Shown in pieces: positions 39,949 through 51,580 of a DNA stretch of 64,000 nucleotides (its first letter is position 1; each line of letters starts with the position of its first letter). The notes under the pieces are model-generated. The model did no database searches, had not been told where the DNA came from, and saw only the letters and a list, made by a program, of their open reading frames with translations. A program made the position numbers and the translations under genes. This DNA is from Escherichia phage Ptacy1479: sequence record PQ863256.1, one strand, 5' to 3'.

Positions 39949-41979
39949 TTAACCTCTATTCAATGAACATTTAGGAGAATTACAATAAACTTGATTCATA
40001 GAACCAAGCGTACAACTTTCAGCATCGCGCCACGGAATCTGCTTAAAACACTCTGAACAGTAACCGAGGGTTGACCACATTGCTTTGGTGAAGTCAGTGC
40101 TTCGGTTTCCGTCGAAGCTGACAACAGTTTTGCGGAGAGCTGTTCGTGATTCAGGAAACACACCTGCTTTCTCAGCAGGTTCCTCCTTTTTTGGCTTAGT
40201 TGAGATTGCAAAAATACTGTTGCTACGTTTCTCAACATAAGCATCAACAACATCCTCCAGAGTGATGCCTGTCTGTTTCGCTGAGGAAGGTAATACAGTC
40301 ATACGACCAATCATGTCTTCAGTTACACGTAAAGCAAATTCAGGACGACGGGCGTTTGTTGTATCTGTTGCTTTAATCCAGACATAACCATCTTTGATCG
40401 TAGCATTAGACACTTTCTTCTTTACTTCTACAGCGCAGACTTTACAGATATCTTCACCACGAAGACGACTAAGTTCATCATCGAACTCGTTCTCTGTTTT
40501 AACTTCACCGCAGATTTCACAAACACCAATAGGAGTTTCCTCCTCTTCTTCCTCTTTAGGTTTAGTCAAACCTTCCAGACATTCAGGATGCCAGTAGCAT
40601 TGATATGCGAAGACCGCTTTAGGTGCATCCTTCCAATCAATGTGTTTGTCACAACCGCCACAGTCACCATGAGAGTGTGCTTCCCAGAATTTACGAGTGA
40701 TAGTAACGCCATTCTTGTTGACGAAACTATCATTCATGTCAAAAGGGATATCATCATCAAAGTCAGCAGTAGTAGACTCAGGCTCCTTTTTCTCCAGAGA
40801 TGGGTCAACAAAACGACCTGCTGTGATCACTAAACGGACCATAGCATTGACTTCGGAGATGCAGGATACTGTCCCACGGTAAACAATTTTAGGGTCTTTC
40901 AGGGCATCCTGATAAGCCTTAATGTCTACGTTATGAACATCACCTTCGATATACTCTTGAGACTTCTCATCGTAGATATAACCAATCATCTTACCACGAG
41001 AAGGAACAGCACCAGCAGTTGCATAAGGAATAAATTCATGTGGTGTAATCTCCACAGTCATGTCGCGGCGAATGTCAATATTTCGATCGCTTGCGATTTT
41101 GTTTTGACTTACCACTGCGTTTCTTCGACGAACGTCTGCCGCTGTCACGCCCGGCTTCGTGTCGTAAGGATTGCTTGTATTGCTTTTTGAGGAACTTTGA
41201 TAGTTGCTTTGGCTGTAGTTGTTCGAGTAATAACTGCCCCAACGATTGGCTACCGTAAAAACCGGAAGCTCGTGGGCGACCTCTTCAACCAGAGTCATGC
41301 CGTTGTTTGACATATCAAAGATATACTCTGTACCAACTTTACATTCAAAATGCTCGTCAATACGGTTCTTATGAGACTTAGAACGCTTCAGAATCCACAT
41401 CAACATATCTTCTTCAGAAGCACCAAACCAATCTCTGTTACAACGTGCGAGGTGGAATGGACGCTCTTCGTTACGGATGATATGAAGGCGGTTATCAGAA
41501 GCATCATGCCAGATTAAAGTGAAAGCACCATCCAGCTTTTGAATAGTCTCTGCTGCACCAATGGTGTTAATAGAGTGGCAGATGTTCTCACTGTCTACCT
41601 CGAAGTTTTTGCTGTCAGGTAACAGATCTTGGTCCATCAAGGTTCCATTATGAACCAGAGTGATGTTACCATGTTGGAAAGGATGGGCGTTCTTGGCGTT
41701 AACTGCACCTTTCGTTGCATGACGACTGTGACCAACAATCCATGAAGGTGCTACAGTGTAAGCTGTTTCACCAGTGGTGTGCTTCTTGTACTCATCTTGT
41801 AAGATGAATGCGAAAGAAGGAAGAGCTTCTTTATAAGTGAAGACTTCCTTAGTGCTTTTACGCTGACCAAAGATACCAGAGGAATGTTGTCCTCGGAATA
41901 CTCCAGCATAAAAGAGTTGGTTGAATACGTCTAAATCGGTGCTTGACAGATTACCGCCAGCTAATACGATGCCACAAAT
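39949..41979 (-). CDS. class-II (Ntn, PurF-type) glutamine amidotransferase domain fused to a Cys-rich C-terminal domain; catalytic Cys preceded by in-frame TAG
   Basis: My translation upstream of the listed ORF gives KICGIVLAGG...RGQHSSGI...GHSRHATKG...NAHPF...LVHNGTL...DSE, matching PurF/GlmS N-terminal motifs; no canonical start between TAG (41983..41985) and Cys codon (41974..41976); upstream SD-ATG at 42012. Confidence 0.6.
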   Translation of the reverse strand: MCGIVLAGGNLSSTDLDVFNQLFYAGVFRGQHSSGIFGQRKSTKEVFTYKEALPSFAFILQDEYKKHTTGETAYTVAPSWIVGHSRHATKGAVNAKNAHPFQHGNITLVHNGTLMDQDLLPDSKNFEVDSENICHSINTIGAAETIQKLDGAFTLIWHDASDNRLHIIRNEERPFHLARCNRDWFGASEEDMLMWILKRSKSHKNRIDEHFECKVGTEYIFDMSNNGMTLVEEVAHELPVFTVANRWGSYYSNNYSQSNYQSSSKSNTSNPYDTKPGVTAADVRRRNAVVSQNKIASDRNIDIRRDMTVEITPHEFIPYATAGAVPSRGKMIGYIYDEKSQEYIEGDVHNVDIKAYQDALKDPKIVYRGTVSCISEVNAMVRLVITAGRFVDPSLEKKEPESTTADFDDDIPFDMNDSFVNKNGVTITRKFWEAHSHGDCGGCDKHIDWKDAPKAVFAYQCYWHPECLEGLTKPKEEEEEETPIGVCEICGEVKTENEFDDELSRLRGEDICKVCAVEVKKKVSNATIKDGYVWIKATDTTNARRPEFALRVTEDMIGRMTVLPSSAKQTGITLEDVVDAYVEKRSNSIFAISTKPKKEEPAEKAGVFPESRTALRKTVVSFDGNRSTDFTKAMWSTLGYCSECFKQIPWRDAESCTLGSMNQVYCNSPKCSLNRG

Positions 41980-42058
41980 TTTCTAATCCACCTGAAGGGT
42001 AAACCCTTTCATCTAATTAACCTTTAAATTGTGCCCCTTTATCAGAGGCACCCATTGA

Positions 42059-43162
42059 TTACAGCGCTTGCTCTAACTGATTTTCCAGATGGTCTGGAAT
42101 GTACCCTGTGATATTGTTATCACTATGACCTGACTCACGCAGTAAGTCAAAAATAGCACGGATACGTTGTTCTGGAGCGTGTCTTACTTGAGACAGGTCA
42201 GTTGTACGAAGCATAACCAGAATCTCTTGGTACAAGTTGTTAGCGTTCCCTCGGACATACCCAAGGAATCCGTAGAAGTCTGACATAAGACGCAAGTCAA
42301 CAAGAACATCTCCGTTGGAGTTGGTTCGACGTAAACGAATACGACCAGACTGTTCTACTTCATGAGAACGACAATACAAAACATCACGGGCCATACAATA
42401 GCCTGAATGCAAATCCGATTCATCCAGATTGTAATCCAGAGGAAGGTAAGGAAGCATTGGGGCAAATCGTACAGTATTTAAGTGCTCAATAAACTGATCA
42501 TTGCTCATATCTGCGTTATCTAGAGCCAGCTTCTTCAACATCAAGAAGCGGTTAACCAGATTGAGAAGTTGACCACGTTTCCACTTAGGCTCACTGATAC
42601 GGAACTCAATTGAACCGTATTGGGCAAGTGGCAGAAGGTTCAGAGATGTATATTTATCCCATGAACGAACCAGACGGTTGAAGAATTCTTCACCATCGTA
42701 GTTAAATGCGTCAGAGGCATTCATTACCTGTGCTTGTACCACTGCAAACGCAGGGCAGAAATTGCTACGGTAACGATGGTAGCCTGAACACTTGAACAAC
42801 ATCTTTTCGTAGAAGGTCCAAGCAAGGATGGTCTTCTTGAGGATATTACTATCAGCATCCCTCATATCCATATGAACGTGAGTAGAGCAACGCCAAGTCC
42901 CCTCGGCGTGCGATTCAGCTACTGCTTCACTCAGGTTGTTGATAGCGTCTAACAACTCCTGTCCGTTGTAAGGTCGTGAACATACCATTTCACAACCATT
43001 ACGCAGGGAACCATCCTCTGTGCAATCCCACATATCTGCTTCGATATGTTCAGAACCTTCGAGTTCAAGTTCAATACCGACACCGCACTGAAGTGCAATT
43101 GAACTATGCGCCTCAGTTAAACGACCTTCTCGATATCCAAAAGTTTGCGCTACAGTTGTCAT
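42059..43162 (-). CDS. COOH-NH2 ligase-type amidoligase (glutamine-synthetase-like fold)
   Basis: GVGIELELEG, GSLRNGCE and CSTHVHMD segments resemble amidoligase / GCS2-type carboxylate-amine ligase motifs. Confidence 0.5.
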   Translation of the reverse strand: MTTVAQTFGYREGRLTEAHSSIALQCGVGIELELEGSEHIEADMWDCTEDGSLRNGCEMVCSRPYNGQELLDAINNLSEAVAESHAEGTWRCSTHVHMDMRDADSNILKKTILAWTFYEKMLFKCSGYHRYRSNFCPAFAVVQAQVMNASDAFNYDGEEFFNRLVRSWDKYTSLNLLPLAQYGSIEFRISEPKWKRGQLLNLVNRFLMLKKLALDNADMSNDQFIEHLNTVRFAPMLPYLPLDYNLDESDLHSGYCMARDVLYCRSHEVEQSGRIRLRRTNSNGDVLVDLRLMSDFYGFLGYVRGNANNLYQEILVMLRTTDLSQVRHAPEQRIRAIFDLLRESGHSDNNITGYIPDHLENQLEQAL

Positions 43163-51505: not shown

Positions 51506-51580
51506 TGGCGTTCCCTCGTGGAATCGAACCACGAATAAGAGCTTAGAAGGCTCCAGTTATATCCGTTTAACTAAGGGAAC
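51506..51580 (-). tRNA. tRNA-Arg(UCU): tRNA-Arg (anticodon UCU)
   Basis: Manual fold: acceptor GTTCCCT/AGGGAAC, D-stem GTTA/TAAC, anticodon stem GGAGC/GCTCT with loop CTTCTAA, T-arm CGTGG-TTCGATT-CCACG, discriminator G, encoded CCA; 75 nt. Confidence 0.8.

Follow-up and report, generated by a model that had tools for sequence, protein, structure and literature searches.

The start region of a phage amidotransferase gene

We examined the translation start of a predicted glutamine amidotransferase gene of Escherichia phage Ptacy1479, within a 64,000-nucleotide (nt) stretch of DNA (record PQ863256.1) that is referred to here as the window. The gene lies on the minus strand and, read from an ATT codon, spans positions 39949..41979; its 676 codons plus stop encode a 76.1-kDa product orthologous to phiEco32 gp83. 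The region matches that of Ptacy1532 (PQ863255, Kuravirus) at 100% identity and that of phiEco32 at 97%. On the minus strand, the start region reads TTAATTAG ATG AAA GGG TTT ACC CTT CAG GTG GAT TAG AAA ATT TGT GGC ATC GTA. An initial annotation, made from the window alone, had singled out this arrangement, and direct reading of the sequence bears it out. An ATG (42012..42010) is followed by eight sense codons and an in-frame TAG (41983..41985), which together make up a mini open reading frame (mini-ORF; MKGFTLQVD*, 41983..42012). After one AAA codon come the ATT (41977..41979) and the TGT codon of the catalytic cysteine, Cys1 (41974..41976). As had also been noted, the interval from the TAG to the cysteine codon contains no ATG, GTG or TTG; the first in-frame canonical start is found 113 codons past the ATT (TTG 41640, ATG 41637). 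The probability that 113 codons contain none of these triplets by chance is about 0.011, as calculated from the codon usage of the gene itself.

The ATT is preceded, at a distance of 7 nt, by a Shine-Dalgarno (SD) sequence, AGGTGGA (41987..41993, minus strand), whose duplex with the anti-SD has a predicted energy of -5.9 kcal/mol and whose paired stretch ends at -8. The in-frame TAG falls inside the SD-to-start spacer, GAUUAGAAA. One nt 5' of the SD lies a stem-loop, AAGGG-UUUA-CCCUU (41995..42008, minus strand), with a folding energy of -5.3 kcal/mol. The anti-SD duplex is weaker at the mini-ORF ATG (-3.4 kcal/mol) and at the downstream ATG 41637 (-3.3 kcal/mol). Thus, the AAAGG that the initial annotation had taken as a good SD for the mini-ORF is in fact weak, and it is separated from the mini-ORF ATG by 8 nt, not 9. 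The downstream ATG (41637..41639, minus strand) encodes Met115 of the full-length protein; it is the start given in the Ptacy1532 and Paul GenBank records and would yield a 63.7-kDa product without the catalytic cysteine.

A predicted N-terminal nucleophile amidotransferase

Pfam assigned residues 76–176 of the full-length product to GATase_6, and GATase_6 and GATase_7 together span residues 76–193, above the cut-offs; the match thus begins upstream of Met115. A search of the PDB with the single sequence gave no match. A profile built from ten family members was required, and in this comparison the cysteine at profile position 1 aligned with Cys1 of mature Escherichia coli GlmS (1xff, E 1.2e-13) and of PurF (1ecb). 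The pair C1-G2 is invariant in two alignments, of 10 and 22 homologues, and R28-G29, N110-G111 and D128-S129 are invariant in the alignment of 10. In GlmS, the class-II motifs comprise R26 (Arg-Gly), N98-G99 (the oxyanion site) and D123. The Arg-Gly, His-Asn-Gly and Asp-Ser/Thr motifs of the phage family stand in register with the RG, HNG and DTE of GlmS. The premise of the initial annotation, a class-II enzyme with an N-terminal cysteine, therefore holds in that profile position 1 coincides with Cys1 of GlmS and PurF. As judged from its sequence, the amidotransferase is an N-terminal nucleophile (Ntn) enzyme that needs its cysteine at the N terminus.

In GlmS, PurF and AsnB, the Cys1 nucleophile is bared by removal of the initiator methionine, as is proposed for the phage enzyme, and the Arg-Gly, Asn-Gly and Asp motifs are kept in the phage protein. 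Cellular class-II enzymes begin with AUG-UGY or carry a propeptide (B. subtilis PurF, GltB). The phage enzyme has a C-terminal extension of about 450 residues, in which Pfam recognises no synthase domain.

The codons upstream of Met115 hold every catalytic motif (Cys1, Arg-Gly, His-Asn-Gly). Compared with the KBNP1711 gene over 113 codons, codons 2–114 are under purifying selection, with a ratio of nonsynonymous to synonymous divergence (dN/dS) of 0.087 at a dS of about 1.6. The differences fall 15/13/58 at first, second and third codon positions.

Conservation of the leader and its stem-loop

In distant orthologues the position of the window's ATT is occupied by an ATG. The genes of Salmonella phage 7-11, Proteus phage P59, Cronobacter phages 009 (Csa009) and A24, Vibrio phage Vp_R1 and two IMG/VR contigs, L020 and L021 (62–64% identity), all begin ATG-TGT-GGN-ATH-GT (MCGIV), with no N-terminal extension. 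Among close relatives, the same leader is present in 98 phage records, matched at 90–100% identity across 80% or more of a 75-nt query. It is also present in two metagenome contigs. These were the only real hits among the 120 given by a metagenome scan with the loose pattern GATGAAAGG-N15-40-ATTTGTGGNAT; both carried the identical leader, so that no new variants were recovered by this pattern.

Across representatives of three coliphage genera (Kuravirus, Suseptimavirus and Nieuwekanaalvirus), 55 consecutive nt are invariant, from TAAAGG to TGTGG (42026..41972, minus strand). By comparison, 49% of sites are invariant in the upstream coding sequence (CDS) and 59% in the downstream CDS, and the flanking coding sequence has a dS of about 1.6. 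The invariant sequence includes TAAAGGTTAATTAGATGA, which makes up the 5' portion of the coliphage leader. In Aeromonas phage BUCT695, which belongs to a different family, homology to the coliphages starts at TTTAAA and the leader is kept; the changes are a T to A in the hairpin loop, a T to C in the SD (giving AGGCGGA) and the 5' TTTAAA-GT-A segment. Two other leaders are homologous as well. That of a marine Melvirus phage (PQ867847) reads ...AGGGGU-UGUG-ACCCCU-AGGAGGAUUAGAAA-AUU-UGU-GG, and that of contig L207 reads UCAAGCU-GUA-AGCUUGA-AGGAGGAUUAGAAA-AUU-UGU. Both have AGGAGGA as the SD and both lack the upstream ATG.

The homologous leaders have three elements in common: a stem-loop immediately 5' to the SD; the SD itself, followed by an A/U-rich spacer that contains UAG; and the AUU. 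The mini-ORF, which overlaps the hairpin, is not part of this common set. The SD-ATG mini-frame described in the initial annotation therefore exists as a sequence but not as a conserved unit, the conserved element being the stem-loop that abuts the true SD; the mini-ORF is lineage-specific and probably incidental. The related leaders L175, L178 and L214 also have a UAG between SD and start, but out of frame, and across leaders the spacer UAG recurs (as GGAUUAG or GGAUAG) in different frames. We conclude that the TAG at 41985..41983 is a triplet of an untranslated spacer in the leader and not a recoded codon.

Probable initiation at AUU

The ATG found at this position in orthologues, the coding selection upstream of Met115, the SD, the conserved leader and existing annotations that begin at ATT all argue that translation of the amidotransferase begins at the AUU codon 41979..41977. 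We put the probability of this reading, which is drawn from comparative data, at about 0.88. Of the four explanations offered in the initial annotation, AUU initiation is the one that the comparisons strongly support.

The start is already present in some public records, so that the specific finding is explained rather than exotic. The CDS begins at ATT in the phiEco32 entries of GenBank and RefSeq (phi32_83, ABY52884 / YP_001671828) and in BASEL phage Bas90; phiEco32 gp83 is the direct orthologue of the window's gene and has an identical leader and start region. The record of Ptacy1532 differs from that of phiEco32 in that the gene is annotated as truncated, the site itself being unchanged. 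More generally, most public records of phiEco32-like phages call the amidotransferase truncated and without its catalytic cysteine, because gene finders ignore ATT and ATC. Among the leader matches listed, the CDS reaches the ATT in 8 of 60. The Ptacy1532, Paul, ECBP2, KBNP1711, EP335 and SU7 records start at assorted downstream ATGs, with loss of the cysteine, and the genes of BUCT695, the Melvirus phage and Pseudomonas phage O4 are annotated as truncated in the same manner. Records with a start 10 to 114 codons into the gene include PQ863255, MN045231, NC_018859, NC_023593, NC_070979, MZ342906, OL799327, PQ867847 and KU535860. Since different records pick different downstream ATGs, these choices are gene-caller artefacts. 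The error passes from the annotations into functional predictions and proteomic databases. In the literature searched, which did not extend to the original phiEco32 papers, we found no discussion of the start codon of the phiEco32-like amidotransferase.

The stretch free of in-frame ATG, GTG and TTG (41637..41976, minus strand) may reflect avoidance of internal starts after a weak start. The start-free stretch is not universal, since the eleventh codon of the CDS is ATG in ECBP2 and SU7.

Some observations count against AUU initiation as set out here. Proteomics of phage SU10 detected nine peptides of the protein, in a search against a truncated 63.8-kDa model. The coliphage SD has a central mismatch and is of moderate strength only. 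In addition, the minimum-free-energy (MFE) fold of the leader (41940..42030, minus strand) includes an alternative hairpin, GGUUUACC/GGUGGAUU, which would sequester the SD. Neither this hairpin nor a long-range helix that surrounds the start region in the MFE fold is supported by the few sequence variants at hand; the helix, GGUUAAUUAGAUG / CAUCGUAUUAGCU, was rejected on inspection of the alignment, as all of it except GAUG/CAUC is lost in BUCT695.

The following sequence of events would account for initiation at AUU. The 30S subunit would bind the AGGUGGA SD 7 nt upstream of the AUU, with the stem-loop directly 5' keeping the SD exposed, and the formylmethionyl-tRNA, although imperfectly paired with AUU, would initiate. 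We infer that the initiator methionine is subsequently lost through the action of peptide deformylase and methionine aminopeptidase, which leaves Cys1 as the N-terminal nucleophile. Cysteine is an accepted second residue for removal of the initiator methionine. The N-terminal peptide predicted to result, beginning at the cysteine, is CGIVLAGGNLSSTDLDVFNQLFYAGVFR.

Alternative explanations

The alternative that survives best leaves the start codon itself unchanged. Under termination-reinitiation, ribosomes would translate the mini-ORF, melting the hairpin, stop at the UAG and restart 3 nt downstream at the AUU, so that the mini-ORF would act as a coupling device of the phiEco32/BUCT695 lineage. 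The short distance from UAG to AUU and the position of the SD inside the mini-ORF suit such a scheme, and the mini-ORF ATG is kept without exception in phiEco32-like leaders and also in that of BUCT695. Reinitiation with a nearby SD is, moreover, an established mechanism, as in the gene V-VII pair of phage M13 (PMC2268962), where the stop also lies a few nt from the downstream start and the SD lies within the upstream frame. The present case differs from M13 in that the upstream frame is a mini-ORF of nine codons, whose SD is weak and which the homologous leaders of the Melvirus phage and L207 do not have. Besides its weak SD, the mini-ORF has the -5.3 kcal/mol hairpin at +5 to +18 of its AUG, and both BUCT695 substitutions alter the encoded peptide (F to L, V to A). 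No comparable mini-ORF was found in other AUU/AUC leaders. Reinitiation appears unlikely on this evidence, and direct initiation at the AUU is preferred.

Readthrough of the UAG was another of the explanations in the initial annotation: translation would begin at ATG 42012, and a 12-residue propeptide of the B. subtilis PurF type would be removed to expose the cysteine. The mini-ORF is indeed in frame with the gene. Propeptide removal is known for some class-II amidotransferases, and a UAG with A as the next base does not provide the strongest context for termination. However, the orthologues start at Met-Cys without a propeptide, the Melvirus and L207 leaders lack the upstream ATG, and the BUCT695 substitutions are non-synonymous. 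In other lineages with AUU or AUC, the upstream in-frame stop may be TAA, TGA or TAG, at varying distances. A suppressor tRNA was not found in the window, in which a tRNA-Arg(UCU) gene (51506..51580, minus strand) is the sole tRNA gene, the 13.7 kb of the genome outside the window not having been scanned. TAG also ends 3 of the 52 long ORFs of the window, which makes it an ordinary, if rare, stop. Readthrough is thus very improbable.

We regard as just as improbable a functional truncation, in which translation would start at Met115 (ATG 41637) and the 114 codons upstream would be a decaying remnant. This reading takes ATG 41637 as the first canonical start, follows the Ptacy1532 and Paul GenBank records and fits the model used for SU10. 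Against it, the frame of the 113 upstream codons is free of stops and, as shown by the dN/dS of 0.087, constrained; Cys1, Arg-Gly and His-Asn-Gly all lie upstream of Met115; the SD of Met115 is weak; and other records choose different downstream ATGs. Finally, the oddity of the site alone might suggest that the isolate has recently acquired an amber mutation or that its sequencing or assembly went wrong, as the initial annotation had allowed, but this is excluded because the leader is conserved, with an identical site, in phiEco32, about 100 independently sequenced phages and the two metagenome contigs.

AUU and AUC starts in the wider family

Loci of the family were collected by two protein-guided IMG/VR scans and from cultured phages. 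A tblastn match from Cys1 was obtained for 165 loci, and dereplication at 98% identity left 115 lineages. The codon preceding the cysteine is ATG in 74 lineages, ATT in 26, ATC in nine, TTG in five and GTG in one; ATA and CTG do not occur. ATT or ATC is thus found in 35 of the 115 lineages (about 30%), and the share is 28–33% when clustering is at 70% or 50% identity. The excess of AUU and AUC is overwhelming even against a generous 1% background. In bacteria, AUU and AUC starts are said to be only 'occasionally found' (PMC5499595). A neighbour-joining tree built from the first 78 loci, without dereplication, requires no fewer than 11 changes between AUU/AUC and other starts. For 35 of the 41 lineages without ATG, the frame upstream runs into a stop before any canonical start is reached.

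The leaders with AUU or AUC also differ from those with ATG in their surroundings. In AUU/AUC leaders, no SD is weaker than -5.8 kcal/mol. Among ATG leaders, by contrast, 11 of 73 have an SD that falls short of -4.5 kcal/mol. A match to AGGAGG at five or six of its six positions is present in 22/33 AUU/AUC leaders, compared to 26/71 ATG leaders (p = 0.006). The SD-to-start spacer of AUU/AUC leaders is confined to 6–9 nt. The median gap to the upstream gene is 28 nt for AUU/AUC and 2 nt, indicating tight coupling, for ATG.

Hairpins were found by a complementarity scan, with ATG leaders and shuffled sequences as controls; a hairpin was counted if it had at least 5 bp and a 3' end at -22 to -11. 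By this measure, 17 of 33 AUU/AUC leaders carry a hairpin, compared to five of 71 ATG leaders (Fisher p = 8e-7). When the AUU/AUC leaders were shuffled, 4.0 had a hairpin on average and at most 10. In AUU/AUC leaders the 3' ends of the hairpins peak sharply at -15/-16, abutting the SD, whereas those of ATG leaders are scattered. When only intergenic gaps of 12–60 nt are considered, a hairpin is present in 8/16 AUU/AUC leaders and in 0/21 ATG leaders (p = 3e-4). Thirteen distinct hairpins, from 13 lineages and at the same position, have unrelated stems, with three to five base-pair types at each stem position. Because the stems differ in sequence while pairs vary at each position, selection appears to act on the structure of the hairpin. 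A covariance-model test was dropped, since the origin of the hairpins in a complementarity scan makes counts of pairs circular.

A close natural comparison is offered by Pseudomonas phages. The leader of phage O4 (loci L263/L319), whose GenBank CDS is truncated to an internal Met, reads AACCUC-GUU-GAGGUU-C-GGAGGA-UAAAAUU-AUC-UGU. Phages PA11 (L264/L317) and TC6 (L318), with 99.5% protein identity to O4, have an unrelated leader with no hairpin, GGAGGT as the SD and TTG as the start. This looks like the swap of a leader module between close relatives. In the searchable literature, we found no description of family-wide AUU/AUC use with a covarying hairpin that abuts the SD.

A possible translational control module

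AUU and AUC are inefficient starts, of the class that initiation factor 3 (IF3) discriminates against. The recurrent combination in this phage enzyme family, a stem-loop, a strong SD, an A/U-rich spacer of 6–9 nt and AUU or AUC, could represent a module in which a weak codon would become usable thanks to a strong SD and the hairpin beside it. Its most likely role, we infer, would be to keep down the output of an enzyme that consumes glutamine and to render that output sensitive to IF3 and the translational state of the host, as in infC. The hairpin could act by preventing the SD from pairing, by shielding the site from ribosomes that arrive from upstream, by stabilising an mRNA that is sparsely translated or by stacking on the SD-anti-SD helix. 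We propose, tentatively and with less than even confidence, that the stem-loop / strong-SD / AUU-or-AUC combination is a selected, exchangeable translational control module of phage Ntn-amidotransferase genes that couples their output to host IF3 and guanosine tetraphosphate (ppGpp), and that the SD-abutting hairpin is a specific enhancer or insulator for near-cognate initiation.

To our knowledge, conserved AUU/AUC starts have been recognised in very few bacterial genes, for example infC and pcnB. In E. coli pcnB, which encodes poly(A) polymerase I, a weak AUU start is thought to limit a potentially harmful enzyme. The phage genes may resemble pcnB in this respect; the difference is that pcnB is a single gene in one lineage, whereas here about 30% of a diverse phage gene family is concerned, together with a structured leader. 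If this is borne out, the family would, as far as we know, be the largest after infC with systematic AUU/AUC initiation. We also know of no SD-abutting hairpin at infC, unlike many of the phage amidotransferase leaders. The infC gene starts with AUU or AUC and is autoregulated through IF3, and it shares with the phage genes a phylogenetically conserved use of the same two codons and an upstream SD (PMC5499595). Non-AUG starts are strongly depressed by ppGpp and by nutrient limitation (PMC5499595). However, infC is autoregulated by its own product, whereas the gene studied here encodes a phage metabolic enzyme, for which the proposed link to IF3 is drawn by analogy.

Several points tell against a uniform low-output module. 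An AUU start need not mean low abundance, as the infC product is fairly abundant despite it (PMC5499595). In 16 of the 33 AUU/AUC leaders there is no hairpin at -22 to -11, so that the module is not uniform. Some of these hairpin-less leaders (IMG/VR loci L244, L303, L305 and L210) pair the SD with an upstream CCUUC-like mimic of the anti-SD, suggesting that this weak start can also be regulated in another way. Furthermore, the statistics on start codons and hairpins are corrected only in part for shared ancestry.

With AUU or AUC in about 30% of its lineages, the enzyme family amounts to a natural experiment on near-cognate starts, in which the stronger SDs, the fixed spacing and the covarying SD-abutting hairpin can show what makes such a start work and why it is selected. 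Tractable AUU models are available in E. coli, in phiEco32 and the BASEL phages Bas86–94, and P. aeruginosa phages provide a matched natural pair, O4 (AUC, hairpin) against PA11/TC6 (UUG, no hairpin).

Neighbouring genes and other features of the locus

The leader was also compared with known regulatory elements. A search of Rfam 15 returned no family match, only two sub-threshold chance hits, which scored 16.7 and 14.2 bits where the gathering scores are 44 and 70. Neither a sigma-70 promoter nor an intrinsic terminator was found at the site in the leader. A promoter dependent on phiEco32 gp36 (tAATGTAtA), with an AATGTA core 6–8 bp upstream of the transcription start, was considered and rejected: the window has TAAAGGTTA at the corresponding place, and the consensus is not matched in the coliphages. 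In phiEco32, the published gp36 promoters precede only genes 6, 13, 26, 40, 58 and 68 (PMC8948821). The AATGTA is retained in the relatives BUCT695, L020, L021, A24 and P59. In the relatives L012, L014, L020, L021 and L010, TTTAAATGTAA(A/T) with an AATGTA core lies 12–20 nt before the start; the coliphages have instead, at 42013..42030 (minus strand), the invariant TTTAAAGGTTAA, which is off the gp36 consensus.

Upstream of the leader, a terminator-like hairpin without a U-tract is predicted by folding at 42031..42051 (minus strand), 3' of the preceding gene, and is labelled 'terminator' in the WFI101126 record. It shows compensatory differences between genera (GUGCC/GGCAC versus GCGC/GCGC) and could serve as an attenuator, a processing site or a stabiliser. 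The preceding gene (42059..43162, minus strand) encodes an Amidoligase_2 protein (Pfam PF12224), the orthologue of phiEco32 gp84, and belongs to the same pathway cluster. By Pfam, the neighbours of the amidotransferase gene comprise this amidoligase, a phiEco32-like COOH-NH2 ligase and an ATP-grasp-like protein. The same cluster is known from the phage amidoligase / COOH-NH2 ligase / ATP-grasp neighbourhood (PF12224; PF14395, 'phage phiEco32-like COOH.NH2 ligase-type 2'); the literature on that neighbourhood deals with the proteins and not with the signals for their translation.

The C-terminal part of the amidotransferase, about 450 residues (noted at 39949..40900, minus strand), has no Pfam match and no recognisable synthase domain. 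It contains several CxxC / Cx2C...Cx2C motifs that resemble zinc ribbons, together with an acidic EEEEEE stretch.

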